Source: a virus. From it: 64,000 nucleotides of DNA. Location: positions 215-64,214 of IMG/VR virus record IMGVR_UViG_3300020202_000079; one strand, written 5' to 3'. Within the stretch, counting starts at the first letter, position 1. The number at the start of each line of letters is the position of its first letter. A program made the position numbers and the translations under genes. Of this stretch, positions 34,248 to 63,559 are shown one piece after another. Below the pieces are notes generated by a model. It was not told where the DNA came from and did no database searches. It was given only the letters and a program-made list of their open reading frames with translations.

Positions 34248-34263
34248 GTAAACAAATCGTTAA
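34248..34263 (-). promoter_or_regulatory. CtrA-like box TTAA-CGATTTG-TTTAC
   Basis: One mismatch to TTAA-N7-TTAAC, in an AT-rich gap upstream of 34230. Confidence 0.55.
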
Positions 34264-34297
34264 CCATGTCGGGGGGCGCGGGTCAATTCCGAGACGA

Positions 34298-47398: not shown

Positions 47399-47603
47399 TG
47401 ATGAACGAAGCACCGAAACTCCCTCCGTAGCGCCACCGATGTCGGCCTGGCCGACACGCGCTTTTTGAAACGACCGAGGCCTTCCCCGCCACGGGGAACG
47501 ACACGGGGTTTCCCCGTGCCGGGGAGGTTTTGCGTTCGCGCCGCGTAGCAGCCGAGTCATCCCGCCAATTTTTTCCAGCTCGCCTCGGGGAGGGGCGACG
47601 CCC

Positions 47604-48110
47604 ATGGTTCCGAACGCAAACGCGCGGCATTTCCTCATCAAGGCCAAGCAGCGCGACCTGATCACCGCCGCCGGCGGGCAGGTGCGCGCGGCCGAAATCT
47701 GCGGCTACGGCAAGTCGACCGTGGGGCGCTGGGCCGATCCCGGCAGCCCCGAATGGATGCCGCTCGACGCGCTGTTCAAGCTCGAGGAGGACACCGGCCG
47801 GCACGACCTCTCGGAAGCGATCGCCGCCTGCCGGGGAAAACGCTTCTCCGATGAGCCCGGGACAGCTGCCGCCAACGGCTCGGCCATGTCGGCGCACGCC
47901 GCAGCGGTGGTGCAGATGGGCGAGCTGATGACCACCGGCGCTCTCGCCTTCGCCGACGGCAAGCTTACGCCGGCGGAAGCGACGCAGATCGACCGGGCGC
48001 TCTCCAAGCTGGAAGAGGCGGTCGAGGAGTATCGCAAGGTGATGGCGGGCGCGCGCGGCGCCGGCGGCCTCGACCTGGTCGGCAAAGCCGACCGTGACGA
48101 GGAGCGCTGA
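47604..48110 (+). CDS. CII-like phage regulatory protein
   Basis: AAGGQVRAAEICGYGKSTVGRW..P...MP.D....LE; DGKLTPAE C-terminus. Confidence 0.75.
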   Translation: MVPNANARHFLIKAKQRDLITAAGGQVRAAEICGYGKSTVGRWADPGSPEWMPLDALFKLEEDTGRHDLSEAIAACRGKRFSDEPGTAAANGSAMSAHAAAVVQMGELMTTGALAFADGKLTPAEATQIDRALSKLEEAVEEYRKVMAGARGAGGLDLVGKADRDEER

Positions 48111-48112
48111 CG

Positions 48113-48478
48113 ATGCTGCTGCGCTATTTCCTGATGGGCGTTCTGATAGCCGCCTTCTACCTTGCGCTCTGCGTGGCCGCCTGGCTCGGCGCGTTCGACG
48201 GCGAAGCGCGGGCGCACGATGCGCTGCCCACGGCCTCGGCGCCGCTTGGCTGGTCTTATCCGTTCTCCTGCTGCTCCGGCTACGACTGCCGGCAGGTGCC
48301 CCCGGCCGACGTGTTCGAAGGGCCGGACGGCTACCGCATCGTCGGTACCGGCGAGGTGCTGGCCTACTCGGACAGCCGCATCAAGGATTCGCCCGACGGC
48401 GAATTCCACTGGTGCTCGGTCGCCGGGAAATCTGACGGCAAGACCATCTGCCTCTTCGTGCCGCCGAGGGGGTTTTGA
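48113..48478 (+). CDS. Exported Cys-rich protein
   Basis: Signal-like N-terminus; GWSYPFSCCSGYDC, HWC, CLFVPP. Confidence 0.7.
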   Translation: MLLRYFLMGVLIAAFYLALCVAAWLGAFDGEARAHDALPTASAPLGWSYPFSCCSGYDCRQVPPADVFEGPDGYRIVGTGEVLAYSDSRIKDSPDGEFHWCSVAGKSDGKTICLFVPPRGF

Positions 48479-48693
48479 TGCCGCGCTGGGAAAATCCCGA
48501 CTGGAGCGCCGACGAAATCGAAGTGCTGAAGCTCGGCTGGTTGGAGCTCGGCAAAAGTGCCGAGCAATGCAGCCGGCTGCTCAAGCGGCGGCTCGGTGTA
48601 ACGCGTTCGCGCGCCGCAATCTGCGGCTTTGTCGATCGCAACCGTGACGTTTTCGGCAGCCGCGTGCCGGCCTCGAAAGTCGAGGCAGCCTGA
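48478..48693 (+). CDS. GcrA-like N-terminal HTH only
   Basis: W...EIEVLK..WL..GKSA.Q.....GVTRSRAAICG..R matches the GcrA N-domain pattern. Confidence 0.7.
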   Translation: MPRWENPDWSADEIEVLKLGWLELGKSAEQCSRLLKRRLGVTRSRAAICGFVDRNRDVFGSRVPASKVEAA

Positions 48694-49511
48694 TGCGCGC
48701 GATCGCACCCTTGCGCCTGCCGGACGTAACCCCTGCCATCATCAAGGGCGCGCCGCCGGTGGCGAAGCTGGTCGAGCCCGGCTCGCTCTATGTCGACGAG
48801 AGCTACCAGCGCGCGCTCTCGGAGCGATCGGTGAAGCTGATCCGCAAGATCGTGGCGGAATGGGACTGGCATGCGTTCAAGCCGCCGATCGTGGTCGAGG
48901 TCGAAGGCCGTTTCGAGGTGATCGACGGGCAGCACACCGCGATCGCCGCGGTGACGCATGGCGGAATCGACCAGCTGCCGGTGCTGATCGTCGACGCCGA
49001 GACGGTGGGGTCGAAGGCTTCGGCCTTCGTGCGGCACAATCGCGACCGCATCCAGGTCACGCCGGTGCAGCTGCATACGGCCATGGTCGCGGCCGGCGAC
49101 GAGGATGCCCAGACCGTGGCGCAGGTGTGCGAGCGCGCCGGGGTGAAGATCCTGCGCAGCCCGCCGGCGCTCGGCCGCTACGCCACCGGCGACACGATGG
49201 CGATCACGACCGTCCGCGCCCTGGTGAACCGGCGCTACGCCGCCGGTGCCAGGCGGGTGCTGGAAACTTGCGTGAAAGCCGGCTGCGCGCCGGTCTCGGC
49301 CGCGATGATCAAGGCCGTCGAGCACCTGCTGTTCGCGCCCGAATATGCGGGCGAGCTCAACGAGGCGCGGGTCGCGCTCGTCGTCTCCGCCAACATGTCG
49401 ACCATCGAGAAGGAGGCTGAACGCTTCGCGGCAGAGCGCAAGGTGCCGCTTTGGCGGGCGCTGGCCAGCGTCATCTACATGAACCGGCGGAAGGCCAAGA
49501 ATGCAGCCTGA
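48693..49511 (+). CDS. ParB-N-like (DUF6551-type) protein
   Basis: LYVDESYQRAL, VIDGQHT.IA, AFVRHNRDR. Confidence 0.75.
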   Translation: MRAIAPLRLPDVTPAIIKGAPPVAKLVEPGSLYVDESYQRALSERSVKLIRKIVAEWDWHAFKPPIVVEVEGRFEVIDGQHTAIAAVTHGGIDQLPVLIVDAETVGSKASAFVRHNRDRIQVTPVQLHTAMVAAGDEDAQTVAQVCERAGVKILRSPPALGRYATGDTMAITTVRALVNRRYAAGARRVLETCVKAGCAPVSAAMIKAVEHLLFAPEYAGELNEARVALVVSANMSTIEKEAERFAAERKVPLWRALASVIYMNRRKAKNAA

Positions 49512-49860
49512 CGTCATCCAGCAGATGCGCGAGGAGATCGACCGGCTGCGGGAGCGCATCCGCGTGCTCGAGGCGGCGCTGGCGCCGGCGCTCGACATCC
49601 CGATCGAATACGGGCTGACCGCCACGGAGGGCCGGCTGTTCGCGCATCTCAGCGCCAGGCCGCAGGTGACAAAGCGCGGGCTTTACCTCGCCGCCTACGG
49701 TGACTGGACCGACGAGACGCCCGACGAGGCGGTGATCGAATCGCATGTGTGCAGGTTGCGACGAAAGCTGCTGCCGTTCGGTTTCCGGATCATCGGCGAG
49801 CGCTTCGCCGGCTACCGCCTCATCCAGCCCGGCGACAGGGGGGGGCGACATGCAGCCTGA
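49501..49860 (+). CDS. Coiled coil plus OmpR/CtrA-type winged HTH, copy 1
   Basis: LTATEGRLF, VIESHVCRLRRKL, AGYRL; no receiver domain. Confidence 0.8.
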   Translation: MQPDVIQQMREEIDRLRERIRVLEAALAPALDIPIEYGLTATEGRLFAHLSARPQVTKRGLYLAAYGDWTDETPDEAVIESHVCRLRRKLLPFGFRIIGERFAGYRLIQPGDRGGRHAA

Positions 49861-50209
49861 CCTCGTCCAGCGGCAGAACAACGAGATCGCCATGCTGCGC
49901 GAGCGCGTGAGGCAGCTCGAGGAGGCGCTTGCGCCGGCCGCGGTCACGGTGCCGCTGGAATGGGCGCTGACCGCGGCCGAGGCGCGCGTCTTCGCACATC
50001 TCACCACGCGCGAGATCGCCAGCAAGCAGTCGATCATGGCGGCCCTCTACAGCCTGCGGCCGGATCTGGACGAGCCGGAGATCAAGATCGTCGACGTCTT
50101 CATCTGCAAGATGCGCAAGAAGATTGCGCCGTTCGGGGTGAAGATCGTCACCGTTTGGGGCCAAGGCTACGCGCTCGTCGGCCGTGAAGACTATGCGAGG
50201 GCGGCATGA
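49850..50209 (+). CDS. Coiled coil plus CtrA-like winged HTH, copy 2
   Basis: DEPEIKIVDVFICKMRKK and TVWGQGY closely match the CtrA C-terminal domain. Confidence 0.88.
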   Translation: MQPDLVQRQNNEIAMLRERVRQLEEALAPAAVTVPLEWALTAAEARVFAHLTTREIASKQSIMAALYSLRPDLDEPEIKIVDVFICKMRKKIAPFGVKIVTVWGQGYALVGREDYARAA

Positions 50210-51065
50210 CTCCCCGCCTGATTCACGGCCTCGCCGAGGAACATTGGCCGGCAAGGTGGCCGAGCGAAGCGTTGACATGATCTACGCCGATCCGCCGTTC
50301 GGAAACGAGCAGGTTTGGAGCGGCCGGTCCGGTTCGTTCGACGATCGCTGGAGCGATCGCGCCCCCTCGCAGGCCTCATGGGAAAGGTTGCGCGCTCATA
50401 ACGTGGCCGGTGCTGCCGTGCTCGAAGTCGCGACGGCTAGCGCTGCTGCGCGCTCCTATCTCGGGGCCATGGCCGATATCCTGGTCGCCAGTCACCGCTG
50501 CCTGAAACCGACGGGAACGTTCTGGCTGCATTTCGACGACACGATGGGGGCGCATCTCCGACTGCTTTGCGACGTGGTCTTCGGGCCGCAACTGGCAATC
50601 GGGACGCTGTTCTGGAAGCGCACCCTCGGCGGCCACGCCAACGCGAAATCATTCGGGCGCGTGCATGACACCATCGCATGCTACGGACGCACCGAGGCCG
50701 CGCGCTGGCGGTTGTGGCGCATCGGCACCCTGGGTGGCGATCCCTTCGGAAGCGGCTTTAACCGGTTCCATGACTTTGCCGATGCGGCCCCACTCAACAC
50801 TGGCAGCAATGAGCGTGTGGGCTATCCAACGCAGAAGCCCGTCGATCTGCTCGTGGAGATCATAAGGGCTGCGACGCGCCCGGGGGACCTGGTTGTCGAT
50901 CCGACATGCGGCAGCGGGACCACGCTGGTTGCGGCTATGAAAACAGGCCGCCGAGCCATCGGTATCGATCAATCTGCTGATGCAATTGCAGCGGCCCGTA
51001 AGCGGATAAGCGGCCCGTCTACGAGCCAAGGTTCGCTCTTCGATTTCGCCGAGGTGGCGGCATGA
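50206..51065 (+). CDS. Beta-class N6A/N4C DNA methyltransferase, probable single-base deletion near 50240
   Basis: DMIYADPPF, YPTQKP, VVDPTCGSGTT; the ATGA-coupled start 50206 (MTPRLIHG) is out of frame with the body. Confidence 0.8.
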
Positions 51066-52315
51066 CGATCGACCTGCCGCCGCCCGACCAGATCAAGGCG
51101 CATCCGCTGGCCGAGCTGTTTCCGATGCTGCCGGAGCAGGAGATCGCCGAGCTCGCGGACGACATCGTGACCTATGGCCAGCGCATGCCGATCGTCATCT
51201 TCGAGAACCAGGTGCTCGACGGGCGCAACCGGCTTGCCGCCTGCCTGTTTGCGCAGGTCGAGCCGAGCTTCGTCGTCTACGATGGCGACGATCCGCTCGG
51301 CTTCGTGCTGTCGCACAATCTGCACCGGCGGCACCTTTCGCCCAGCCAGCGCGCCATGGTGGCGGCCTCCATCGTCGACTGGGAGGTCGGGCTCAACCAG
51401 CATTCGGCAGGGTCTGCAAATTTGCAGACCCACAAGGCGGCCGAGCGGCTGTCGATCAGCGAGCGGGCGGTGGCTGCGGCCAAGCGCATCCGCGAGCACG
51501 GCTCGGCCGAGCTGGTGCAGGCGATCCGCGACGGTCGCGTCTCCGTGCATGCCGGCGAGGCGCTGTCCGACCTGGCGCACGAGGCGCAGCGTGCCGCGCT
51601 CGCCGAGGAAGAGCGCGAGATCATCCGGCGGGCGAAGGAAATCCGGGCGGCCAGGCAGCAGCTGCGCCACGCCGAGCGGCTGGCCAACATGGAGCGGATC
51701 GCCTCGGCCGGGGCATCGCGCGCGCCGCAAAAGCTCGACCGGCTCTATGGCGTCTACTACGCCGACCCGCCCTGGAAATTCGACGTGCGCTCGGAAGAGA
51801 CCGGGCGCGAGAAGAGCGCCGAGAACCACTATCCGACGATGACGACGGAGGAGATCGCGGCGCTGCTGGCCGAACTGATCGGCGGCGACACGCCGGCGGT
51901 GTTCTTCCTCTGGGCCACCAACCCGATGCTGCCCGACGCGCTCGACGTGCTTGAGGCCTGCGGCTTCACCTATGTGCATCACTGGATCTGGGACAAGGAA
52001 GTGGCCGGCACCGGCTATTGGGGCCGCGACCGGCATGAGCTGCTCCTGATCGGCCGTCGCGGCGACATCGCCTCGCCGCTGCCCGGCACGCAGCCGGAGA
52101 CGGTGTTCCGGGTGAAGAAGGGCAGGCACTCGGCCAAGCCGGATGTGTTCGCCGAAACGATCGAAAAGCTGTTTCCGGGCGTGTCGCGGCTGGAGCTTTT
52201 CGCGCGGCGTGCGCGGCCGGGCTGGGATGCGTGGGGTTACGAGGCCGACGAGGCGGGCGGCGAGGCGGACCAGCCGGAAACGGCAACGCCGCCCGCCGAG
52301 GCGGTGCCGGCATGA
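51062..52315 (+). CDS. ParB-like N-domain fused to MT-A70 methyltransferase
   Basis: HPLAELFP, LDGRNR, NLHRRHL; YADPPW, LWATNP, HSAKP, LELFAR. Confidence 0.88.
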   Translation: MTIDLPPPDQIKAHPLAELFPMLPEQEIAELADDIVTYGQRMPIVIFENQVLDGRNRLAACLFAQVEPSFVVYDGDDPLGFVLSHNLHRRHLSPSQRAMVAASIVDWEVGLNQHSAGSANLQTHKAAERLSISERAVAAAKRIREHGSAELVQAIRDGRVSVHAGEALSDLAHEAQRAALAEEEREIIRRAKEIRAARQQLRHAERLANMERIASAGASRAPQKLDRLYGVYYADPPWKFDVRSEETGREKSAENHYPTMTTEEIAALLAELIGGDTPAVFFLWATNPMLPDALDVLEACGFTYVHHWIWDKEVAGTGYWGRDRHELLLIGRRGDIASPLPGTQPETVFRVKKGRHSAKPDVFAETIEKLFPGVSRLELFARRARPGWDAWGYEADEAGGEADQPETATPPAEAVPA

Positions 52316-52320
52316 ACGTG

Positions 52321-52974
52321 TCAGATCGTCAGATGTTCTGGATTCTCGGCTATGAGCTCAACGCGTTCATGCCGCGCTCCGATGATCTTGAGTTTGACGC
52401 GAGCACCAACCGGGACGTTGAGCGTCCCTTCTATCGGACCATCTTTTTTTGCGAACATCTGGATCGAGACCCGCACACGGGGCGGTGGTTTGGTCCGGTC
52501 AAGCCATCCCGGAATAGTGAAATGGACGCCTTCCGTTTCCGGATTCACGGTTTGGAGCACCTGGAGCATTGGGTCTTGGAACTCGATGCTGCCAAAGACG
52601 GTCTGACCCTCGGCTGTAATGTCCTCGACTTCGATCGACCGGCGGTTCCAATTCGTGATGACCACATCCACCACCGAAAAACCTTCGTCGCTCTCCTCCA
52701 GCTCGACCGTCGGCAGGGCATCTCCGACGACGAATGCCGTCTGGCGGCGGGCCTCGCGCATTTGGCCGGCAAGGAAGGTGATGGTAGCGCCGGCGGCAAT
52801 GGCCGCGGCCCAACCGCTGAGTGCTCCGATCCATTCGCGCAGGCAATCCGCCTCGCCAGCGACGCACCAGTCGGCGCGCACAATGGCGAAATCGGAAATG
52901 GCGAGAAAGGCAAAACCGCCCAATGCGGCGCCTCCGAGAAGAACGATGAAGTCGCCGGTGCCCATGTCGCGCAT
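52321..52974 (-). CDS. Antisense membrane protein (moron)
   Basis: Two TM segments, CLREWIGALSGWAAA; atypical codon usage; start may be 52965. Confidence 0.65.
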   Translation of the reverse strand: MRDMGTGDFIVLLGGAALGGFAFLAISDFAIVRADWCVAGEADCLREWIGALSGWAAAIAAGATITFLAGQMREARRQTAFVVGDALPTVELEESDEGFSVVDVVITNWNRRSIEVEDITAEGQTVFGSIEFQDPMLQVLQTVNPETEGVHFTIPGWLDRTKPPPRVRVSIQMFAKKDGPIEGTLNVPVGARVKLKIIGARHERVELIAENPEHLTI

Positions 52975-53018
52975 GCGGCGCTGAATAGCACAGCCGGCGT
53001 TTGCTTCGCGAGGGCCGC

Positions 53019-55643
53019 ATGAACGCGACCGTCGCCGCGCCTCTCGATCCCTATCTCGATTTCCTCCGCGGCAAGATCAAGCTGGCCGAGCTCGCCGGCT
53101 TCCATGTCGAGCTGGACGAGATCAACCCGGCGCTCGCCCCACATTGCCGCGCGATCGTGAGGTGGGCCGCGGCCGGCGGCTGCCGCGCGATCTTTGCCAG
53201 CTTCGGGCTGCACAAGACCTCGATCCAGATCGAGCTCATGCGGCTGATCGGCAAGCGCTTCCGCGGGCCGCGCCTGATCGTGATCCCGCTCGGCGTGCGG
53301 CACGAGTTCTTCGCCGAGGTCGCGGAACGCTTCACCGGGGAGCATGCCGCGACGCTGCGCTTCGTGCGGCGCGACAGCGATATCGACTGGGCCGACGATT
53401 CCGTCATCTGGCTCGCCAATTACGAGAGCGTGCGCGACGGCAAGATCGACCTGTCGCGCTTCGTCGCCGCCTCGCTCGACGAGGCGGCAGTGCTGCGCGG
53501 CTACGGCACCAAGACCTTCCAGACCTTCCTGCCGCTGTTCGACAAGGTGCGCTTCAAGTTCGTCGCGACCGCCACGCCCTCGCCGAACCGCACCAAGGAG
53601 CTGATCCACTATGCTGGCTTCCTCGGCATCATGGACACCGGCCAGGCGCTGACGCGCTTCTTCCAGCGCAACTCGGAGACGGCCGGCGACCTGACGCTAT
53701 ACCCGCACAAGGTCGACGAGTTCTGGCTGTGGGTGCACAGCTGGGCCGTCTTCCTGCAGAGCCCGGCCGATCTCGGCTTTCCCGATGAGGGGTACCGGCT
53801 GCCGCCGCTCGAGGTGCGCTGGCACGAGGTGCCAATCGACCACTCCACCGCCGGCGTCGACCGCGACGGGCAAGGCCTGCTGTTGCGAAACACCGCGCTG
53901 GGCTTGAGCCAGGCCGCCGCGGCCAAGCGCGACAGCCTGCCGGCGCGGATCGAGAAGATGAAGGCACTGATCGCCGAGGATCCTGCGGCGCACCGGGTGC
54001 TGTGGCACGACCTCGAGGCGGAGCGCGAGGCGATCGAGGCGACGGTGCCCGGCGTGCGCTCGATCTACGGCAGCCAAGACCTGGACGCGAACGAAGAGAA
54101 CGCCGTCGGCTTCAAGGAAGGGCGGTTCGCCTTCTTGGCCACGAAGCCGGAGATGAGCGGCGCCGGCAACAATTTCCAGAAACACTGCCACCACGCCATC
54201 TTCGTCGGCATCGGCTTCAAGTTTCACGACTTCATCCAGGCGGTGCATCGCATCGTGCGCTTCGGGCAGCATCACGCCTGCCGCATCGACATCATCTACT
54301 CGGAAGCCGAGCGGGAGGTGCGCAAGAGCCTCGAAGGCAAGTGGGCCGAGCACGATTCCATGATGGGCCGCATGGCGGAGATCATCCGCCGCTACGGGCT
54401 CGCAGGCCTGCCGGCCGAAGATTTGCTAACGCGCTCGATCGGGGTCATGCGGCGGGTCGAGGAAGGCCAGTTCTTCCGCGTCGCGCACAATGACGCGGTC
54501 GAGGAGGCGAAGCTGACGGCGGACGCGTCAGTCGGGCAGATCGTGACCTCGATCCCGTTCGCCAACCATTTCGAATATTGCGCCAGCTACAATGATTTCG
54601 GCCACACCGAAGACAATGGCCATTTCTGGCGGCAGATGGATTTCCTGACGCCGGAGCTCTACCGGATCCTGCAGCCGGGGCGGCTCGCCTGCATCCACGT
54701 CAAGGACCGGGTGCTGTTCGGCAACGTGACCGGCGAGGGCGTGCCGACCATCTCGCCCTTCCACGCCGAAGCGATCTTCCACTACCTCGCCCACGGCTTC
54801 CAGTATTTCGGCATGATCACCGTCGTCACCGACGTGGTGCGCGAGAACAACCAGACCTATCGGCTCAGCTATTCGGAGATGATGAAGGACGCCACCAAGA
54901 TGGGCGTCGGCTGTCCCGAATACGTGCTCATCTTCCGCCGGCCGCAAAGCGACCAGAGCAAGGGCTATGCCGACCTGCCGGTGGTGCATGACAAGCCGCT
55001 GGTGATCGCCGCCGACGGCAGCCGGCAGCGCTGGAGCGACGGCGACAAGCGCAGCCAAGTGCCGGACAGCGGCTATACGCTGGCGCGCTGGCAGCTCGAC
55101 GCGCATGCCTTCTGGCCGTCATCCGGCAACCGGCTCCTGACCACGGCCGAGCTGGTGAAGCTCGGCAGCAAGTCGACATCGGCTCTGTTCAAGCGCCTCT
55201 TCGAGGATGGCGGAGGCCCTTACGATTTCGCCGCACATGTGCGGCTCGGCGAGGAGCTGGCCGAGCGCGACAATCTGTCGAAGACCTACATGACGCTCGA
55301 CCCGCCGTCGAAACATCCGGCGGTGTGGACCGACATCGTGCGCATGTTCACGCTGAACGGGCAGCAGGCGCAGAAGAACCTCGAGAAGCATGTCTGCCCG
55401 TTGCAGTTCGACATCGTCGACCGGCTGATCGAGCGCTACTCGAACCCGGGCGAGACGATCTACGACCCGTTCGGCGGGCTGATGACGGTGCCCTACCGGG
55501 CGATCCTGAAGGGCCGGCGCGGGCAGGCCTCGGAACTCTCCGCCACCTATTTCCATGACGGGCTCAATTACTGCCGCCAGGCCGAAGCCAAGGTCGCGGT
55601 GCCCGACATGTTCGCGGCGCTGGAAGCGGAGGCAGCGGCATGA
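53019..55643 (+). CDS. SNF2-like helicase fused to DNA methyltransferase
   Basis: FASFGLHKT, LDEA, TATPSPN, QAVHRIVRFGQ; IVTSIPF, HVCPLQFD, YDPFGGLMT. Confidence 0.85.
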   Translation: MNATVAAPLDPYLDFLRGKIKLAELAGFHVELDEINPALAPHCRAIVRWAAAGGCRAIFASFGLHKTSIQIELMRLIGKRFRGPRLIVIPLGVRHEFFAEVAERFTGEHAATLRFVRRDSDIDWADDSVIWLANYESVRDGKIDLSRFVAASLDEAAVLRGYGTKTFQTFLPLFDKVRFKFVATATPSPNRTKELIHYAGFLGIMDTGQALTRFFQRNSETAGDLTLYPHKVDEFWLWVHSWAVFLQSPADLGFPDEGYRLPPLEVRWHEVPIDHSTAGVDRDGQGLLLRNTALGLSQAAAAKRDSLPARIEKMKALIAEDPAAHRVLWHDLEAEREAIEATVPGVRSIYGSQDLDANEENAVGFKEGRFAFLATKPEMSGAGNNFQKHCHHAIFVGIGFKFHDFIQAVHRIVRFGQHHACRIDIIYSEAEREVRKSLEGKWAEHDSMMGRMAEIIRRYGLAGLPAEDLLTRSIGVMRRVEEGQFFRVAHNDAVEEAKLTADASVGQIVTSIPFANHFEYCASYNDFGHTEDNGHFWRQMDFLTPELYRILQPGRLACIHVKDRVLFGNVTGEGVPTISPFHAEAIFHYLAHGFQYFGMITVVTDVVRENNQTYRLSYSEMMKDATKMGVGCPEYVLIFRRPQSDQSKGYADLPVVHDKPLVIAADGSRQRWSDGDKRSQVPDSGYTLARWQLDAHAFWPSSGNRLLTTAELVKLGSKSTSALFKRLFEDGGGPYDFAAHVRLGEELAERDNLSKTYMTLDPPSKHPAVWTDIVRMFTLNGQQAQKNLEKHVCPLQFDIVDRLIERYSNPGETIYDPFGGLMTVPYRAILKGRRGQASELSATYFHDGLNYCRQAEAKVAVPDMFAALEAEAAA

Positions 55644-55894
55644 AGCCCGACTTTTCGCCCGAGATGCTGCGGTTCTTCCTGCATGCGCGCTACCGCCATT
55701 CGGGCAGCGAGGCGCCGGCGGCGAAGGCGCTCAACTGGCTGCGCAAGGCGGCCGGCGTCGACGTCTACGACATGCGCGCGGCGATCGCCGGGCACCTGAC
55801 CAGGGCCAAGCCGCGCGTGCGGCTGTGGGGCGCGCTCGGCCATGTGGTGGCCGACCATGGAATTACCCTGACGGATGATGGAGGGCAGCGCTGA
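55640..55894 (+). CDS. Hypothetical protein
   Basis: PDFSPEMLRFFL...LW.ALG; coupled. Confidence 0.65.
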   Translation: MKPDFSPEMLRFFLHARYRHSGSEAPAAKALNWLRKAAGVDVYDMRAAIAGHLTRAKPRVRLWGALGHVVADHGITLTDDGGQR

Positions 55895-56160
55895 TGCGGG
55901 CCGGCTTCGACTGGCGGCGCTTTGGCCGCGACGTGCGCAAGGGCATTGCAGGGCGGGCGCTGAGGCCGCTCGCCGAAGAGGTGGGCGTAACTTCGACCGA
56001 TCTCTCGCGCGCCTCATCCGGAACCAATGTCAGCATCGAGAAGGTGCTCGCCATGTGCGACGCATTCGGGCTCTCGGCGCGGCGCTATTACCAGAAGCCG
56101 AGCCCTGAAAAATCAGCACGTTGCACCTCCGCTCACGTGAAACAGGAGGCGCGCGCATGA
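55894..56160 (+). CDS. XRE-like HTH protein
   Basis: LRPLAEEVGVTSTDLSRA..G..VSIEKVLAMC. Confidence 0.7.
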   Translation: MRAGFDWRRFGRDVRKGIAGRALRPLAEEVGVTSTDLSRASSGTNVSIEKVLAMCDAFGLSARRYYQKPSPEKSARCTSAHVKQEARA

Positions 56161-56747
56161 ACGGCTTGGCCGGTTTTCCAGCCCAGCAGGCGTGGGTGTG
56201 CGGGCTGTCGATCATGCAGCAATCGGTGCTGTTCGCCGCGGTGAGAGCGCCAGACGGCATCCGCAAGGATCATCCGGTCAAGGTGCTGTTGCGCTGGTAC
56301 CGGCGCTGCGTCCTCGTCTCGGCCTTCGACGGCAAGGCCCTGACCGACCCCTTCGTCGGCGGCGGGGGCAGCTTCACCGGTCCCTACGACATGCACCACG
56401 CCGCGGCCTTCGACCCGGCGCTGACGCCGAGCGAGCGGCGTGCGCTCGCATATGGCGATGTCGCAGTCTGGGATCGGCTGCGGGTGAATTCGTTCGACGG
56501 GCAGCGGGACACCTATCTCCGTCACGTCGACGAGCTGCCGCACCACTTCCAGCTGCATTTCATGCATGCCGCCGAGATCGTCGGCTACAAGCATCCCGAC
56601 CTGGCCATCAGGAACTGGTGGCGGGACTTTTACGAAGCGCTCGTGAACGACGCGCATCTGTTTCCCGAAACCGAGGAGCAGATGGATGAGCGGCTGAGCG
56701 ACTGCGAGGCTGCGTGGCGCGCTCGTGAGTCGGTGGTGGCGCGATGA
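56157..56747 (+). CDS. Conserved-looking hypothetical protein
   Basis: QQSVL..AVRAPDG, LPHHFQLHFMHAAEIVGYKHP. Confidence 0.75.
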   Translation: MNGLAGFPAQQAWVCGLSIMQQSVLFAAVRAPDGIRKDHPVKVLLRWYRRCVLVSAFDGKALTDPFVGGGGSFTGPYDMHHAAAFDPALTPSERRALAYGDVAVWDRLRVNSFDGQRDTYLRHVDELPHHFQLHFMHAAEIVGYKHPDLAIRNWWRDFYEALVNDAHLFPETEEQMDERLSDCEAAWRARESVVAR

Positions 56748-57043
56748 GCGGCGAAGCCCACTGCACCGACAGCCTGCTGCCGATCATCGCGCAGATGCAC
56801 AATGCGGCCGACGACCGCGCACGCGCGGCGGTGCTGCTCGCCGTCTCCGATGCGATCCTGTGCAAATACCGGACTGTGTTCGACCAGGCCTGCCAGCGCG
56901 CGGCCTTCGACCTCGGCCGAAAATTCATCGAGATGCGGCGGGCCGAATGGTGTGCCAAGCGCGGGCGTGACGGACGGCATACCAATCCACTGTTCGAGCA
57001 GGTGCGGGCCGAGTTCGCTGCGTTTGCCGCGGGAGGCGCCTGA
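56744..57043 (+). CDS. Hypothetical protein
   Basis: ATGA-coupled. Confidence 0.6.
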   Translation: MSGEAHCTDSLLPIIAQMHNAADDRARAAVLLAVSDAILCKYRTVFDQACQRAAFDLGRKFIEMRRAEWCAKRGRDGRHTNPLFEQVRAEFAAFAAGGA

Positions 57044-57046
57044 GCC

Positions 57047-57649
57047 ATGGCGCGGGTCTCCTACGATCCGGAAGGCGACGTCAAGCTGCGGCGGGAGCGG
57101 GGCGGCCTGGATGCCGAGCTCAGCCGGATCTGCCGGCGCGAGGAAGCGCGCGCGCGAAAGTCGTGGAATGTGCTCAGCTCGCCCGACGCGCCGCTGCCGC
57201 CCGGGCGCCAGGCATCGGCGCCGCGCGACGAGCAGGCGGCGGCACTGGCGCTGATCCACGACGCTGTGCGCGCCGGGCAGCAGCAGATCGCCGCCGCGCA
57301 CGCTGCGGCGAGAAAGCGAATCGCGGCCGCTCGCATCGAGGCGCAGGCGCTCCTCGCCACGCTGCCCGACTTCGCCGCGCTCGAGGCCGCGCCGGCGAAG
57401 CGCGGCAAGAGCGCCGGTCGCGCCATGCGCGAGGCTGCCGACCGGCGTGGCGTTCCGGTGGCGGCAATCATCAGCGCCTCGAAGAGCCCGGTGGCGAGGC
57501 TCGCACGCCTGGAGGCGGTTCTCGGTGTCGTGGACGCCTGCCCGGGGCTCTCCCGCGAGCAACTGGGGAAATTGTTCAAGCGCTCGGGCGAAACCTTCTC
57601 GCGGCTCTACCGTGAGGCGCTCGAAGCGCGGCGGAGAGGCGAGATATGA
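57047..57649 (+). CDS. Coiled coil plus DnaA domain IV-like HTH
   Basis: EAADRRGVPVAAIIS...ARLEAV......PGLSREQLGKLFKR. Confidence 0.55.
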   Translation: MARVSYDPEGDVKLRRERGGLDAELSRICRREEARARKSWNVLSSPDAPLPPGRQASAPRDEQAAALALIHDAVRAGQQQIAAAHAAARKRIAAARIEAQALLATLPDFAALEAAPAKRGKSAGRAMREAADRRGVPVAAIISASKSPVARLARLEAVLGVVDACPGLSREQLGKLFKRSGETFSRLYREALEARRRGEI

Positions 57650-58068
57650 GCCTGCCGCGCGCCATGCATGTCGGACGGCAGCCGGACGATCCGCGCACAC
57701 TGTTCGTGATCTTCGACCGCGAGCCGACCGACGACGAGATGGAAGCGGTGCACGCGCTGCTGCGCGAGGCGGCGGACGAGGGTGCGGGCCCAAGGCCCTT
57801 CGCGCCGCTCGAGGCCTATGCCGACGCGGAGACGGGCGGGAAGAACCATGCGGCCGAAGCCGCGATGAAATGCGGCGACCCGGCCTTCAAGCGCTTCCTG
57901 ATGGAACGGCACGGGCTGGAAAGCCCGGCCACCGACGAGCGCGCCACGCAGAAGCTGCGCAGCCTGCTCGGCATCACCAGCCGGCGCGAGCTCAACCATG
58001 GCGGGCTGTCAGCTGAAGCCTGGGTGCGGCTGCGCCGGGAGTTCGAGGCGTGGAGGCGCGCGGGATGA
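57646..58068 (+). CDS. Hypothetical protein
   Basis: AAMKCGDPAFKRFL...LRSLLGITSRRELN. Confidence 0.7.
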   Translation: MSLPRAMHVGRQPDDPRTLFVIFDREPTDDEMEAVHALLREAADEGAGPRPFAPLEAYADAETGGKNHAAEAAMKCGDPAFKRFLMERHGLESPATDERATQKLRSLLGITSRRELNHGGLSAEAWVRLRREFEAWRRAG

Positions 58069-58250
58069 AGCGGGACCGTGCCTTCCTGATCTTCTACGCC
58101 CGCGTGCTCTTGCGCGAATGCGCAGCCCGGCGGGGCAGCAATGACTTTTACTGGATGCTGTTCGACGGTGCGCAACGGGCGCGACGTGAAGTCAAGGCGC
58201 TGTCGCGTCAGCCGCGCCAGCTCCGTCTTTTCGGGGAGGTCGCGGCTTGA
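58065..58250 (+). CDS. Small hypothetical protein
   Basis: ATGA-coupled, ends QLRLFGEVAA. Confidence 0.6.
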   Translation: MKRDRAFLIFYARVLLRECAARRGSNDFYWMLFDGAQRARREVKALSRQPRQLRLFGEVAA

Positions 58251-60610
58251 ACGCACAATTCATGCTCGAAGCCCCGGCCCAGAGGGGCAAGCCGCTGCCG
58301 TGCCTGCCGGCGCGCGGGCGCATGCGGCCGGGCAGGCAGCATCGGCTTCCAGTCGCCCCGCCGCCTCTTTGCGGCCCGCGCAAGGTGGCCGTGGTCGACA
58401 GCTTCGCCGGCGGTGGCGGGGCATCGAACGGCATCGAGCTGGCGCTCGAAATCCTGTCGCGCATGGGCCTGCTGCCGGCCGGGCACGACACGCTGGTGCA
58501 CTACGCCATCAACCATGACGAGCCGGCGCTCGCCATGCACGAAGCCAACCATCCGCGCACCAAACACCTTCCCCACAATGTGTGGAAAGTGTCGCTGCGC
58601 GAGATCCTGGGCGACAATTTCTTCGGCCTGCTCTGGCTCTCGCCGGACTGCCGCGACCATTCGCCGGCCAAGGGCGGCCCGATCACCTCGCGCTCGGTGC
58701 GCGATCTTGCCTGGGTGCTGGTGCGCTGGCTGAAGGAACTGCCGGACTGGCAGCGGCCATGGTGCATCTTTCTCGAAAACGTTCCGGCCTTCTCCAAGTG
58801 GAGCCCGCTGGTCGAGCGGGCCGACGGCAAGGGTTACGAGCGCGACAGGAGCCGCGAGGGCGAGATATTCCATCGTTTCGTGCGCACGGTCTGCAAGCAG
58901 TTCGGCTATTCGGCCGGCTGGCACGAGGAGATGTCCTGCCGGCACGGCGACCCGACCATCCGCAAGAGGCTCTACCTGGTGTTCCGCCGCGATGGGGAGC
59001 GGGTCGAGTTTCCCGACCAGACGCACGGCGACCCGAAATCTGAAGCCGTGAAATGCGGCAAGCTCAAGCCCTGGCCCGTCGCCGCCGACATCATCGACTT
59101 CTCGCTGGACTGCCCGTCGATCTTCATGACCAAGGCGGAAGCCCGCGATTATACACGCCGGACCGGAAAGCGGCTGATCCGGCCGCTCGCCTTCAAGACC
59201 GACGCGCGGCTGGCCAAGGGCGTGAAGCGGCATGTGATCGATGCCGGCGACGAGGCCTTCGTGGCGACCTGCAACCATGCCGGCGACGGGTTCCGCGGGC
59301 AACCGCTCGGCGAGCCGTTCGCCACCGTCGCCAGGGCGCGGGACGCGCACGGTCTCGTCCTGCCGCACGTTGCGGTGTTTCGCGGCGACAGCGACGGCAG
59401 GCCGGTGACGGCGCCGGCGCCGACCGCGACGGCCAACAGCTTCATCAAGCGGCCTGGCGGCGCCTCGCCTCTGGGCGTGGTCGAGACGTCGGCGGTGCCG
59501 TTCGTCAGCCGCGGCCAGCATGGTGGCGGCAACCGGCCGGCCGGCGAGCCGCTGCACACGATCGCCGCGTCTGACGGCGACACCAACCAGATCGCCCAAG
59601 CGGTGATCGCTCCCTTCGTGGCTGTCCAGAACAATGACACGAAGCCGGACGGCGCGCAGTATCACCGGGCGGGCCGGGCTGTGACACAGCCGCTGGGAGC
59701 CGCGACGACATCGCCGACGCATTCGCTCGCAGTGCCCTATCTGGTGCCTCGCTACGGCGAGCGTGAGGGGCAGGAGCCGCGATCGCTCCCGATCGACCGG
59801 CCGATGCCGACCCCGGTGCCGGACGGCAACCAGGGCAGCCTCGCGGCCGTCTATCTGGCGCAGCACAATACGGGTGAGGAAGGGCACTCGGCCGGCCGTC
59901 CGGTCTCGACCATCGTGCAGAAGGGCTGCACGCAAGGCGTCGTCGCGGCCTCGATCGTGGAGATGCACGGCCGCTCGGACGCGCGCCCGGCCGGCGATCC
60001 GCTTTCGGCCGCCACCGGCACCAGCGCGCACGGTTTGATGGCGGCGCACATGCTGTCGCTGAAGGGCAGCGATCGCCGCGACGGGCCGTGCACCGATGCG
60101 CACGATTCGATCTGTGCCGGTGGCCAGCACTCCGCCGTGGTGACGCTGCCGCTGGTGACGGCGTACTTCGGTCAAAGTGTCGCTTCGCCGGCCGATGAAC
60201 CGCTGGGGGTCGCGGGAACGAAGGACCGCTTCGCGGCGACTCAAGTCGAGGCGGCCGTTCCGCCGCTCTCCGAGCGACAGCTCGCCCGCGCCCGCCAGGT
60301 CGCGGAGTTCCTCCGCTTCCACGGCTGCTGGGACGGCGGCGACTTCGTCACCGTCATCATCCGAGGCGTCACCTTCATCATCGTCGACATCGGAATGCGC
60401 ATGCTCACGCCGCGCGAGCTCGCACGCGCGCAGAGCTTCCCCGATTCCTACGTGCTTGACCCGATCGTGAACGGAAAGAGGCTCTCCGAGACCGAGCAGC
60501 GCCACAAGATCGGCAACTCGGTCACGCGCTTCACCGCCGCGGCGCACATCGTCGCCAATTACCGCCCGCCGCTGTCATGGGGCGAGCAGGAATATCGGGA
60601 GGCGGCTTAG
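58247..60610 (+). CDS. C5-cytosine DNA methyltransferase, long form
   Basis: DSFAGGGG, SPDC, ENV, PTIRKRL, RMLTPRELARAQSFP, IGNSV; TTG start. Confidence 0.9.
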   Translation: MNAQFMLEAPAQRGKPLPCLPARGRMRPGRQHRLPVAPPPLCGPRKVAVVDSFAGGGGASNGIELALEILSRMGLLPAGHDTLVHYAINHDEPALAMHEANHPRTKHLPHNVWKVSLREILGDNFFGLLWLSPDCRDHSPAKGGPITSRSVRDLAWVLVRWLKELPDWQRPWCIFLENVPAFSKWSPLVERADGKGYERDRSREGEIFHRFVRTVCKQFGYSAGWHEEMSCRHGDPTIRKRLYLVFRRDGERVEFPDQTHGDPKSEAVKCGKLKPWPVAADIIDFSLDCPSIFMTKAEARDYTRRTGKRLIRPLAFKTDARLAKGVKRHVIDAGDEAFVATCNHAGDGFRGQPLGEPFATVARARDAHGLVLPHVAVFRGDSDGRPVTAPAPTATANSFIKRPGGASPLGVVETSAVPFVSRGQHGGGNRPAGEPLHTIAASDGDTNQIAQAVIAPFVAVQNNDTKPDGAQYHRAGRAVTQPLGAATTSPTHSLAVPYLVPRYGEREGQEPRSLPIDRPMPTPVPDGNQGSLAAVYLAQHNTGEEGHSAGRPVSTIVQKGCTQGVVAASIVEMHGRSDARPAGDPLSAATGTSAHGLMAAHMLSLKGSDRRDGPCTDAHDSICAGGQHSAVVTLPLVTAYFGQSVASPADEPLGVAGTKDRFAATQVEAAVPPLSERQLARARQVAEFLRFHGCWDGGDFVTVIIRGVTFIIVDIGMRMLTPRELARAQSFPDSYVLDPIVNGKRLSETEQRHKIGNSVTRFTAAAHIVANYRPPLSWGEQEYREAA

Positions 60611-61033: not shown

Positions 61034-61551
61034 CCTCGATCGCCGATTTCGCCGCGTTCCGCGCCTCGCCCAAGAGCAAGAGTGACAAGGTCGTCAGAGA
61101 TGAGGCACTGCAGCCGAATGGTGTTGCCGGCCGGCTCAAGCCGCTGGAAAACACATTCTTCCGGTACAAGCAGATTGCAGGGATCGACCTTACCGATTGC
61201 CTGGTCGAGCGCCTCAGCCCGATGCGGATTCGCATCTGGGAGCCGCTGCTGACCAAGGCACCTTCGCCACCCAAGGCGGCGCCCTTCTGCTGCTACATCC
61301 AGACGGTCATCTTCTACCACTTCCCGCACATCCTGCAGCTGCGGAAGAGCTATTGGCGCGACGCTTCCGGGATCCTGCGCGAGGGCAAACGCGGGTTCGA
61401 GGAATGGGACCAGATCAAGACGCGTTTGACGTCCGACGACGTCGTTGAGTTCGAGGGTGAGCGTTATGTGGTCAATGGTGGGCAGGTTCTCTGGAAGCGC
61501 AGTCGCTGGTGGATGCTTCGCGGCGCCAGACGCGAGGAACGGCAGCGATGA
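61030..61551 (+). CDS. Hypothetical basic/aromatic protein
   Basis: ATGA-coupled both sides. Confidence 0.6.
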   Translation: MTSIADFAAFRASPKSKSDKVVRDEALQPNGVAGRLKPLENTFFRYKQIAGIDLTDCLVERLSPMRIRIWEPLLTKAPSPPKAAPFCCYIQTVIFYHFPHILQLRKSYWRDASGILREGKRGFEEWDQIKTRLTSDDVVEFEGERYVVNGGQVLWKRSRWWMLRGARREERQR

Positions 61552-62819
61552 GCGAATCTTCACGCGCTTGGAGCTGGCGCCACGCCTTCGCCTCGTCGGA
61601 CCTGCCGGCCACGACCAAGGCCGTGCTGCACACGCTCGGCATGTTCATGAACGAGCTCGGCGAAGGCTGCTACCCCTCCGTCGCCGATATCTGCCGCTAT
61701 AGCGGACTCGACAAGAAGACGGTGCTGAAGCACCTCGCTGTGGCGCGGGAGGCGGGCTGGATCGGCATCGGCCAGCACGGCTATCGCGGCCAGAAATGGA
61801 AGCGCAGCGAATATGTGGCGCGCTGGCCCTCGCGCGATCTCGATGCGCCTTGCCTGCCCTTCGACGACGAGCAAGAGGCGGGGAGCGGCGGCGCGACAGG
61901 GACAGAGGAAGACCCCGAAAAAGGTGGTGGCGCTACTCCACCACCTTCCGACGCCGGCGAGGTGGTGGAATCCAGGGGTGAAGGTGGTGGAATTGAGGGG
62001 TCGAAGGTGGTGGAGCAGCTCCACCAGGATAAGACCAGTCCAGTAACCTCTCCAGATACCAGTCCAGTTGAGAAAGAGCGCGGGCGCGAGGAAAATGGTC
62101 CAGAAGGGCTGACCAAGCGCGCCGAGGCGCTGTTCTACGCCACGTTCAAGCACTGGAAGCGCTTCGACGTCTCGCCGAAGCCGCCGATGCTGGCGGCATG
62201 GGGCAAGCTCAGCTGGGCCGAGATGGAGGAATGCGCGCCGACGGTGCCGCTCTTCCTCGAGCAATGCCGAAAGGATGGCGTCTCGCACCCTTGCGCGGTG
62301 GCGACCTTCATCGGGCAGGCCATGTGGAAACCGTTCATCGAGGCGGCACGCAATTCAGGGCCGAAGGCCGAGCCGGTCGAGGCAAAACCGCTCGGCAAGG
62401 CGTGGATGGCGCTACGGCTGAAGGCCCTGCTCGGCGGGCCGGTGGCGACGGTCTCGACCAAGCTCACCAGCTTCGAGGAAAAGCTCGTCCTCGACGGCAA
62501 GGCCAATGCCGATGAGCTGAGGCGCGACAAGCTCGCCCAGGTCGGCTACCCGGCCGTGAACCGGCTGCACGACCAGCTGCGCTTCCGCACGGTGGCGATC
62601 GTCGATCCGACGCTGGCAGAGCTCGCCTCTGGCTTCGTGCCGGTCGAGGTCGGCAGTGCGACCTGGCTCGCCTGGAAGGACCTGCATGCAGCGCGCGGCT
62701 GGCCGTGGCTGCCGGATCTCGGATGGATCAAATGGGTCTACTTCCCGGCCGACGGAGCGGACGGGTTGCATGCCTTCGAGCAGGCGCTGAAGGGCACGGA
62801 AACGGGGAAGGCAGCATGA
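61548..62819 (+). CDS. Replication initiator with N-terminal HTH
   Basis: TKAVL..LG.F....GEGCYPSVADIC..SGLDKKTV.KHL....GWI; internal iterons. Confidence 0.8.
   Translation: MSESSRAWSWRHAFASSDLPATTKAVLHTLGMFMNELGEGCYPSVADICRYSGLDKKTVLKHLAVAREAGWIGIGQHGYRGQKWKRSEYVARWPSRDLDAPCLPFDDEQEAGSGGATGTEEDPEKGGGATPPPSDAGEVVESRGEGGGIEGSKVVEQLHQDKTSPVTSPDTSPVEKERGREENGPEGLTKRAEALFYATFKHWKRFDVSPKPPMLAAWGKLSWAEMEECAPTVPLFLEQCRKDGVSHPCAVATFIGQAMWKPFIEAARNSGPKAEPVEAKPLGKAWMALRLKALLGGPVATVSTKLTSFEEKLVLDGKANADELRRDKLAQVGYPAVNRLHDQLRFRTVAIVDPTLAELASGFVPVEVGSATWLAWKDLHAARGWPWLPDLGWIKWVYFPADGADGLHAFEQALKGTETGKAA
61922..62068. repeat. Iteron-like repeats, probable origin
   Basis: AGGTGGTGG at 61922, 61960, 61982, 62005; inverted copy 61938; ACCAGTCCAG twice. 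Confidence 0.65.
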
Positions 62820-63559
62820 TGGTCGATCGGGTGGGTAAGAGCGAACGCGTCTGGCTCGATCGCGCCGGCCAGCCGATCGAGGCGGCACCTCGGCTGGCGT
62901 TCGTGCAGCGGCAGCAACAGCTGACCCGTCGCGGCCAGGCACTGCTCGCTGCGGCCGGAGAGGTTGCTCCTGAGAGGCGGTGGTATGTGGTGCGCGTCGC
63001 ACCAGGTCAGGACAAGGCTGTGGACAATTCGCTCGCTGAAGCCGGCATCGATCGGTGGATGCCGGAGGAGAAGCGTGTCGTGAAGCGGCGCGTCGCCGGC
63101 GGCCGGATGGTCCGGAAGGACGAGATGCGGCCCTGCCTGATCGGCTATGTATTCGTGCACATCGTATCGTGCCCGGAGCATTGGCACGGCATCAAGAAGA
63201 TCGACGGCTGCCTCGACGTGCTCGGCGGGATGGAGCGGCCTTGGCCCGTGCTCGAAAAGGAGTTTGCCGAGCTGCGCGATCTCTTCGGGCTGTCGCCCAA
63301 GGCGCGCGAGCGAGTGCTCGCCGAGCGGGTGAAACAGGCCATGGCGCTAGAACCTGGTGATCCGGTGAGGGTCACGGCGGGGCAGCTCGCCGGCCGCACC
63401 GGCGACTATGAGGGCGAGGATGGGACGTTCCGGGCATGGGTGATGATGAGCCTGTTCGGTGGGCGCGTGCCGGTCAGCGTCCCTCTTGCGGATATCGAGA
63501 GAATCGGCGTAGCCACTGCGCCCCAGGACGAGTCGACAGAGCGCGGCAGGCCATCATAG
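62816..63559 (+). CDS. NusG-family antiterminator at the lambda Q position
   Basis: WYVVRV, CLIGYVFV, KOW GDPVRVTAGQLAG, SLFGG.VPV. Confidence 0.85.
   Translation: MMVDRVGKSERVWLDRAGQPIEAAPRLAFVQRQQQLTRRGQALLAAAGEVAPERRWYVVRVAPGQDKAVDNSLAEAGIDRWMPEEKRVVKRRVAGGRMVRKDEMRPCLIGYVFVHIVSCPEHWHGIKKIDGCLDVLGGMERPWPVLEKEFAELRDLFGLSPKARERVLAERVKQAMALEPGDPVRVTAGQLAGRTGDYEGEDGTFRAWVMMSLFGGRVPVSVPLADIERIGVATAPQDESTERGRPS

Follow-up and report, generated by a model that had tools for sequence, protein, structure and literature searches.

Does a phage that carries relatives of the cell-cycle regulators GcrA, CtrA and DnaA beside a DNA methyltransferase hold one coordinated device directed at its host, or a number of genes acquired one by one? 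The question is raised by IMG/VR virus record IMGVR_UViG_3300020202_000079, of which we analysed 64,000 nucleotides (positions 215 to 64,214, here called the window). This is almost the whole 64,214-base record, which is about 95% complete. The DNA is that of a temperate siphovirus of Hyphomicrobiales, and the element in question is its early operon, which runs rightward. A preliminary description of this DNA had proposed that shortened mimics of the three regulators act there as a complete set together with a CcrM-class methyltransferase. Genes related to GcrA, CtrA and DnaA are indeed found in one early operon, and the open reading frames (ORFs) of the proposed module are all present, on the plus strand, and translationally coupled. 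What did not hold is the set itself, as its parts do not occur together in 80 related loci or in 50 whole related records. The sole evolutionarily fixed unit is a gene encoding a ParB-like protein with DUF6551 and, coupled to it, a gene encoding a CtrA-type winged helix of 119 amino acids. The look-alikes are thus separately acquired accessory genes and not one fixed hijack module.

The DUF6551 and winged-helix gene pair

The 80 IMG/VR loci were found through the winged-helix family. In about 70 of them the DUF6551 gene is placed immediately upstream of the winged-helix gene, and two copies of the latter were observed in 12 loci out of 82, a total that includes two genome loci besides the 80. 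The window is organised in the same order, with two winged helices (Table 1). The ParB-like protein that had been noticed beside them was recovered both by DUF6551, well above its gathering cut-off of 26.8 bits, and by the PHROG family annotated as 'ParB-like'. It has been reported that phage DUF6551 ParB-fold fusions bind CTP or ATP (bioRxiv 10.1101/2025.10.10.680097). The motif DGQHT is present in 66 of 74 DUF6551 homologues, and we infer that it may be equated with the P-motif arginine (GxxR), on which nucleotide binding depends. The same motif also resembles the DGQHR-like (DndB-type) signature, with threonine replacing arginine. Taken together, the DUF6551 protein and the coiled-coil CtrA-domain protein form a widespread pair and a plausible phosphorylation-independent CtrA mimic.

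Relationship of the winged helices to CtrA

The two winged-helix proteins of the window, named here wH1 and wH2, are each 119 amino acids long and are paralogues with 42% identity; the first 12 nucleotides of their genes are identical. Residues 1-33 form a heptad segment, with invariant leucines at heptad spacing, ahead of a Trans_reg_C domain (26.8 bits in wH1 and 33.1 bits in wH2, for a cut-off of 26.2). Neither Pfam nor NCBIfam models matched a receiver domain with a phospho-acceptor aspartate in wH1 or wH2, and the two therefore lack a receiver, as had been described, and carry the heptad segment in its place.

For wH2 the best NCBIfam model was that of CtrA (48.6 bits, the next model reaching 26.6), a score that is far below the curated equivalog score of 350 bits for CtrA (NF045991). 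Compared with the CtrA of Mesorhizobium (L165:982-1677), wH2 showed 43% identity over 80 columns. Its recognition helix, KIVDVFICKMRKK, differs from that of CtrA, KIIDVFICKLRKK, at 2 of 13 positions, and its wing reads TVWGQGY where CtrA has TVWGRGY. In a Mesorhizobium genome with an orthologous prophage, CtrA was the best cellular match to wH2 (42.8 bits, the next regulator reaching 22.6). Moreover, a peptide pattern made from the wH2 helix picked up genuine ctrA genes in hundreds of alphaproteobacterial genomes. The other copy, wH1, shows 32% identity to CtrA and its helix has diverged (AVIESHVCRLRRK); to judge from its residues it is a diverged paralogue without a CtrA-type recognition helix. 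Of the two CtrA-like winged helices of the preliminary description, both are of the OmpR type and only wH2 is of the CtrA type.

A tree was computed from 87 columns with 35 phage rows out of 99 and 30 CtrA rows out of 78, drawn at random, together with both window proteins and 10 other OmpR-type domains of Mesorhizobium. The phage proteins and CtrA were found on one side of a branch (Shimodaira-Hasegawa-like approximate likelihood ratio test, SH-aLRT, 96), apart from nine of the ten other OmpR-type domains, and CtrA itself was monophyletic (99). The coiled-coil CtrA-domain family comprises more than 135 protein clusters and 176 IMG/VR contigs, and within it the helix residues D82, V83, F84 and C86 are nearly invariant. 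Since wH2 keeps the CtrA recognition helix, signal-independent mimicry of CtrA by this protein is a fair hypothesis.

A predicted complex of wH1 with wH2 scored 0.39, while the best of three controls scored 0.00; no fewer than 59% of contacts were common to the runs, and the predicted local distance difference test (pLDDT) value of the partner was at least 68. The support for a complex is weak, as the mark used for such scores is reached by 58 of 80 solved complexes and also, among 110 mismatched pairs, by 2; at 0.60 or below it is reached by only 7 of the 80 solved complexes and by both of the passing mismatches.

CtrA boxes on phage DNA

It had also been suggested that the phage carries CtrA-like boxes at two of its own promoters. 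A perfect TTAA-N7-TTAA is not found in the 64-kb window, and sites with one mismatch number two (Table 1) against 1.1 expected, which 32 of 100 shuffles do as well; the proposed boxes are therefore at chance level. The sequence TTAACNAT occurs three times in the window against 0.66 expected, a count reached by 5 of 100 shuffles. In the 50 related records there was no excess either, with perfect boxes numbering 3, as many as for the reversed control, and 47 copies of TTAACNAT against 40 for the control. Within 10 kb on either side of the module in the 80 loci, neither an excess of TTAA-type sites nor a preferred TTAA spacing was detected; taken as a whole, the searches on phage DNA covered full boxes, the 8-mer half-site and spacing histograms. 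The conservation of the helix and the absence of sites from the phage provide the chief, if indirect, argument for a possible action of wH2 on host DNA.

The same results bear on a purely phage-internal role, in which the DUF6551-winged-helix pair and the other small helix-turn-helix (HTH) proteins would serve operator binding, a partition-like function or anti-defence, the CtrA-like domain being only the source of the fold and the host cycle being left untouched. Such a role would fit the constant position of the pair in the early operon, beside methyltransferases and ParB-methyltransferase fusions, and wH1 shows that the helix is able to diverge; in addition, prophage ParB-fold fusions are suspected to be anti-defence genes (bioRxiv 10.1101/2025.10.10.680097). 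It fits poorly with the near invariance of the CtrA-specific helix residues over more than 135 protein clusters, which argues for a retained CtrA-like specificity, and with the lack of an excess of TTAA-type sites in these phages for such proteins to bind. We consider this role somewhat unlikely.

Co-occurrence of the parts

Pfam profiles were run over 50 whole related records, and a comparison set was made of 47 records chosen by their ParB-MT-A70 gene, in none of which the winged helix is present. Close relatives of the GcrA-like ORF of the window were found in 0 of the 80 loci, and close relatives of its DnaA-like ORF also in 0 of 80. The beta-class methyltransferase gave only motif-level matches, in 5 of 80 loci, and the ParB-MT-A70 gene was present in 25. 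At the level of Pfam families, GcrA was found in 13 of the 50 records and DnaA_C in 8, both occurring together in 2, where 2.1 would be expected (Fisher p 1.0), and hence GcrA and DnaA_C genes assort independently of each other. DnaA_C was not enriched in records with the winged helix (8/50 against 4/47 in the comparison set, p 0.36), and it stands outside the association between CtrA-like and GcrA-like genes that is weighed below. Clustered 'regulator mimics' in the early operon of a phage call for caution, as independent assortment can produce them.

The GcrA-like protein

The ORF at 48478 gave no Pfam match at E 0.1 nor in the genome search, being below the gathering score of Pfam GcrA (PF07750), and the NCBIfam GcrA model (NF050816) matched it only at E 0.048. 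With HMMER, 1.84 billion representatives were searched exhaustively, which returned five proteins, and the two best non-self matches (E 1.8e-9, protein P0127, and E 1.3e-4) aligned N-terminus to N-terminus. Proteins P0127 and P0129 are full-length Pfam GcrA members of 216-234 amino acids, the former at 56 bits. In addition, the AlphaFold 2 (AF2) model of the ORF (pLDDT 80) placed the DNA-binding domain of Caulobacter GcrA (5yiu, 5yiv; 38% identity) second and third in the Foldseek ranking. The ORF is assigned to the N-terminal DNA-binding domain of GcrA because of this fold match and of the transitive homology through P0127, and the description of a GcrA-like HTH at this place is thus supported. 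Other searches contributed less: a word-based homologue search retrieved the ORF alone, PDB sequence searches with the single GcrA-like and DnaA-like proteins gave nothing useful, and a PDB profile match to GcrA was set aside as circular, canonical GcrA being inside the profile.

The loss of the domain that binds sigma70 was likewise confirmed, the ORF stopping at residue 72 and no remnant of the sigma70-interacting C-terminal domain being found in any frame of the window. The residues of GcrA that read bases and the methyl group are R33, N34, I37, G38, H41 and R42, and a double alanine mutant of N34 and I37 impairs GcrA function (PMC5887438). Their equivalents in the ORF are R46, A47, C50, G51, D54 and R55, so that three of six are kept (R33, G38 and R42) and three are changed (N34 to A, I37 to C and H41 to D). 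The ORF is thus a GcrA-type domain, but with only half of the contact residues kept it would probably not read methylated GANTC faithfully.

The genes of P0127 and P0129 are both found in phage early operons, and one of these two closest relatives is placed directly behind a cII-like gene (L193), as in the window. Two genes downstream of the closest relative (L190:8001-9435) lies a GapR_DNA-bd gene, GapR being an alphaproteobacterial protein of the nucleoid and the cell cycle. Several further GcrA-family genes were observed. In Mesorhizobium sp. B2-3-4 (L162:1477-3104) a divergent full-length gene (205 amino acids) is located directly 3' of, and overlapping, the gene for a beta-class methyltransferase of 337 amino acids, possibly as a writer-reader pair. 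In a related provirus (L201, G020:C1:35352-35711, minus strand) a frame of 359 amino acids matches both Bac_DnaA_C (positions 3-66) and the N-terminal model of GcrA (positions 2-44) and appears, from these matches, to join both types of HTH in a natural fusion. In ParB-MT-A70 phages without the winged helix, the GcrA model is matched only in its C-terminal part, which binds sigma70, and the ORFs concerned have 120-161 amino acids (G096:C1:7532-7672, G092:C1:6989-7183 and G059:C1:7963-8055), the mirror image of the domain-only protein of the window.

The DnaA domain IV-like protein

The product of the ORF at 57047 had no match in sequence families (Pfam, PHROG, NCBIfam) and no PDB sequence match. 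Its Atlas features led to mostly viral Bac_DnaA_C clusters (score 0.87; 187-188 shared features; 106-200 members), and with its AF2 model (pLDDT 80) DnaA domain IV occupied Foldseek ranks 1-4 with a probability of 0.97-1.00. For ranks 1-3 the template modelling score by target was 0.70, and the fold was matched with a root-mean-square deviation of 1.4-2.0 Å over 74-78 columns. At the level of the fold the DnaA domain IV-like protein is therefore confirmed. In an alignment with the DnaA of Mesorhizobium (RDHTTV) and with a Pfam-positive phage DnaA_C protein (NHTTV), the ORF reads RSGETF, which gives no sign that DnaA boxes would be read. The idea that the DnaA-like and GcrA-like proteins are mimics or competitors of the host regulators is supported neither by this comparison nor by the GcrA contacts, of which three of six are kept. 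Stand-alone DnaA_C domains are common among phages of many hosts.

A receiver-less CtrA and a GafA-like protein, which resembles the DnaA DNA-binding domain, could also switch on the late genes of the phage itself, in a cascade of the roseophage or gene-transfer-agent type. In roseophage RDJL Phi 1 the receiver-less CtrA is indeed placed between homologues of GafA and rcc01866, the N-terminus of GafA resembles the DNA-binding domain of DnaA, and gafA is often split into two ORFs in Rhizobiales (Fogg 2019, PMC6363796). The window offers little for such a cascade: the 57047 ORF has no similarity to gp38 of RDJL Phi 1 (hhalign probability 0.14), the next ORF (57646-58068) has none either, no sigma-like or DUF6456 match was obtained, the winged-helix and 57047 genes are 7 kb apart, and a NusG-like antiterminator occupies the place expected for the late-gene switch. 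The idea of a split GafA was rejected on the hhalign result and on the lack of any match for 57646-58068, and we consider the cascade very improbable.

DNA methyltransferases

Four methyltransferases of different classes are encoded in the operon between 50184 and 60610: a beta-class N6/N4 enzyme, a ParB-MT-A70 protein, a helicase-N6_N4 fusion and a C5 (Dcm-like) enzyme. The first of them has the beta-class motif order, with DPPF at residues 36-39 and the S-adenosylmethionine (SAM)-binding motif at about residue 240, and this part of its description as a CcrM-class enzyme can be kept. The relation to CcrM itself cannot, and we rejected the enzyme as a CcrM orthologue; nor is there a justification for picking out one of the four methyltransferases under that name. 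The CcrM model (NF050803) matched it with 66 bits for a cut-off of 830 and over residues 211-277 only, PDB 6pbd matched the same local stretch (residues 205-277), and identity to the CcrM of Mesorhizobium was 27%, whereas the genuine Mesorhizobium CcrM scored 646 bits over model positions 2-348. The C-terminal domain of CcrM is missing, as the protein ends about 16 residues past the SAM-binding motif. Among isolated phages its nearest full-length relatives are those of Streptomyces and Mycobacterium (actinophages) and of Flavobacterium.

The start of the gene had been placed at 50206. This ATG is out of frame with the body of the enzyme, for which the in-frame starts, in an open frame, are 50184 and 50193. 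We also observed that the ATG at 50206 is coupled by ATGA to the stop of wH2 and that its own frame reads MTPRLIHG..., which resembles the usual N-terminus of beta-class enzymes. This may reflect a single-base change of frame near 50240 or an error in the assembly.

GANTC is strongly depleted in the window (positions 1-64000), with 93 sites against 313 expected (standard deviation 17), and TTAA is found only 12 times in its 64 kb. Both may mirror host composition or restriction avoidance.

Genome setting

Homologues were found in Mesorhizobium, Sinorhizobium, Rhizobium, Aminobacter and Methylobacterium, and the host is therefore probably a member of Hyphomicrobiales. Genes for terminase, portal, major head and tape-measure proteins are located at 0.5-18 kb of the window. 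Near 46 kb an HTH repressor gene reads leftward and a cro-like gene rightward, and the long early operon then follows, with the replication initiator and the NusG-like antiterminator at its end. A terminator-like hairpin (47440-47456) is placed just 5' of the cII-like gene, and from this gene (47604) through 52315 the genes are joined by overlaps of the TGATG or ATGA type. The rightward operon is broken by an antisense ORF (52321-52974, minus strand), placed after the MT-A70 gene and before that of the helicase-methyltransferase fusion. As a whole, the early operon is mosaic in its make-up, combining accessory DNA-binding proteins with four DNA methyltransferases (Table 1).

Table 1. Features of the early operon and one-mismatch CtrA boxes, in coordinates of the window
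Feature	Coordinates	Strand	Evidence
One-mismatch TTAA-N7-TTAA box, TAAACAAATCGTTAACCAT, also holding TTAACCAT and TTAACGAT	34249..34267	+	Site scan
One-mismatch TTAA-N7-TTAA box, TTAACGATACGTCAA	46672..46686	+	Site scan
cII-like activator, opens the coupled early block	47604..48110	+	phrog_101 E 1.4e-19; Phage_CP76 23 bits
GcrA DNA-binding domain only, 71-72 amino acids	48478..48693	+	P0127/P0129 as best relatives; Foldseek 5yiu, 5yiv
ParB-CTPase-fold protein with DUF6551	48693..49511	+	PF20188 36.3 bits; phrog_1033
wH1, coiled coil and OmpR-type winged helix, recognition helix diverged	49501..49860	+	Trans_reg_C 26.8 bits
wH2, coiled coil and CtrA-type winged helix (KIVDVFICKMRKK, TVWGQGY)	49850..50209	+	NCBIfam CtrA 48.6 bits
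Beta-class N6/N4 DNA methyltransferase (DPPF)	50184..51065	+	PF01555 108.9 bits
ParB-N and MT-A70 DNA methyltransferase fusion	51062..52315	+	MT-A70 74 bits; phrog_21315 E 4e-155
Helicase-like and N6_N4 methyltransferase fusion	53001..55643	+	phrog_16 E 3e-102; PF01555 32.9 bits
Long helical N-terminus and C-terminal DnaA domain IV-like HTH (about residues 120-200)	57047..57649	+	Atlas, AF2, Foldseek
C5-cytosine methyltransferase-like	58247..60610	+	TIGR00675 dcm E 1e-8; FAGGGG and PC motifs in translation
Replication initiation protein (O-like, HTH_36)	61509..62819	+	phrog_270 E 2e-26; PF13730
NusG-like antiterminator, end of the early operon, ahead of the late genes	62705..63559	+	PF02357 57 bits; phrog_6386 E 7e-34

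Proposed function

The explanation that we prefer, and to which we give about an even chance, is that of a fixed pair, DUF6551 and a winged helix of the CtrA type with a leucine zipper, in which wH2 would more likely be directed at the host, the other parts of the operon being accessory. A short leucine zipper stands in for the receiver domain, and the winged-helix gene is duplicated in this phage, giving wH1 and wH2. The latter could dimerise through the zipper and bind CtrA-type half-sites without phosphorylation, early in lytic growth. Since CtrA boxes were found neither in this phage nor in its 50 relatives, DNA under the control of host CtrA would be a likelier target than phage promoters. 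The DUF6551 protein would probably be a nucleotide-dependent partner of wH2, to judge from gene linkage. The GcrA-domain-only and DnaA domain IV-fold proteins, with their altered specificity residues, would probably read phage-specific or otherwise different sites, and the methyltransferases would be enzymes of self-marking or anti-restriction and not CcrM.

Some results weigh against this explanation. GcrA genes were found in 13 of 50 records with the winged helix and in 3 of 47 without it (Fisher p 0.013), and in 9 of the 13 the GcrA gene is on the same strand as the winged helix and within about 7 kb of it. This is a loose association, and some functional link between CtrA-like and GcrA-like genes may exist; the enrichment is confounded by phage lineage, non-independent records and the lower completeness of the comparison set. 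Host targeting of wH2 is argued solely from the absence of CtrA boxes on phage DNA, and in a dimer held by the zipper the half-sites might have to be arranged differently, which our scans would miss. Finally, the winged-helix tree comes from 87 columns and a quick search.

The association with GcrA, whose genes are often in the same operon as the winged helix, along with the reality of the three domain relationships and the location of the genes in one operon, would also be in favour of one coordinated module, in which the GcrA, CtrA and DnaA domains and a CcrM-class methyltransferase compete as dominant negatives at the sites of all three regulators and so lock the host in one cell-cycle state. 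Such a module is improbable given that the set does not co-occur (0 of 80 loci for the GcrA-like and DnaA-like relatives), that GcrA and DnaA_C genes assort independently and DnaA_C is not enriched beside the winged helix, that N34 and I37 are changed and only three of six GcrA base contacts kept, that the DnaA-box motif is lost in the 57047 ORF and that the methyltransferase is not CcrM.

To return to the pair of DUF6551 and the winged helix, a broader proposal can be built on it. The coiled-coil CtrA-domain proteins may be phosphorylation-independent mimics or competitors of CtrA which, with their ParB-like partner, occupy host CtrA sites at an early stage of infection and, with facultative GcrA-type genes, make up a loose toolkit that sets the cell-cycle or motility state of the host in temperate rhizobial phages. 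We regard this broader proposal as doubtful. In Alphaproteobacteria, replication and division as well as flagella and pili are under the control of CtrA, and the last two serve as phage receptors. It is known that phages can read host CtrA by means of binding sites carried in the phage genome (PMC9437464). A signal-independent CtrA domain made by the phage would, if true, be the reverse case, in which the phage itself writes the CtrA output. Moreover, strict coupling would give a poorly understood class of phage ParB proteins a first candidate partner, and as the winged-helix family is common in prophages of nitrogen-fixing symbionts, a genetic test should be easy.

Comparison with known systems

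Phages with a receiver-less CtrA, with a GcrA or with CcrM analogues have been described before. A GcrA homologue has been described in phiCbK (PMC3556154), and host CtrA sites in phage genomes as well as phage CcrM analogues have been reported (PMC9437464). In our literature search no description was found of a CtrA domain in zipper form or of its coupling to DUF6551, and searches on CtrA-like prophage proteins and receiver-less phage CtrA gave no further papers.

The GcrA-type N-terminal HTH is common to the window ORF and to the phage GcrA homologues (phiCbK gp222, PMC3556154; P0127; P0129), and the position after a cII-like gene is shared with the phage GcrA of L193. However, those homologues are full length with a Cys-rich sigma70-binding domain, whereas the window ORF ends at 72 amino acids with N34, I37 and H41 changed. 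The ORF at 57047 shares its fold with stand-alone phage Bac_DnaA_C proteins and with DnaA domain IV (PDB 3pvp, 1j1v), but it is below the Pfam threshold (PF08299), does not keep RDHTTV and has a long helical N-terminus where the AAA+ domain of DnaA would be. The beta-class methyltransferase has in common with CcrM (PDB 6pbd; NF050803), its best match in both PDB and NCBIfam, the order of DPPF before the SAM-binding motif; this match is only local and the C-terminal domain is absent from the window enzyme.

In comparison with the CtrA of Alphaproteobacteria, wH2 has a DNA-binding domain that is 43% identical and a nearly identical recognition helix and wing, but neither the receiver nor its phospho-acceptor aspartate. 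A close parallel is gp37 of roseophage RDJL Phi 1, a receiver-less CtrA that is annotated in GenBank, with its relatives in Rhodobacter and Paracoccus phages. These proteins and the window winged helix are all stand-alone winged helices of the CtrA type in alphaproteobacterial phages. The protein gp37 has 151 amino acids, its domain at residues 19-91 and no N-terminal zipper, and its gene is placed between GafA and DUF6477 homologues. The winged helix of the window, unlike gp37, carries a zipper before the domain, is coupled to a DUF6551 ParB-like gene and is duplicated.

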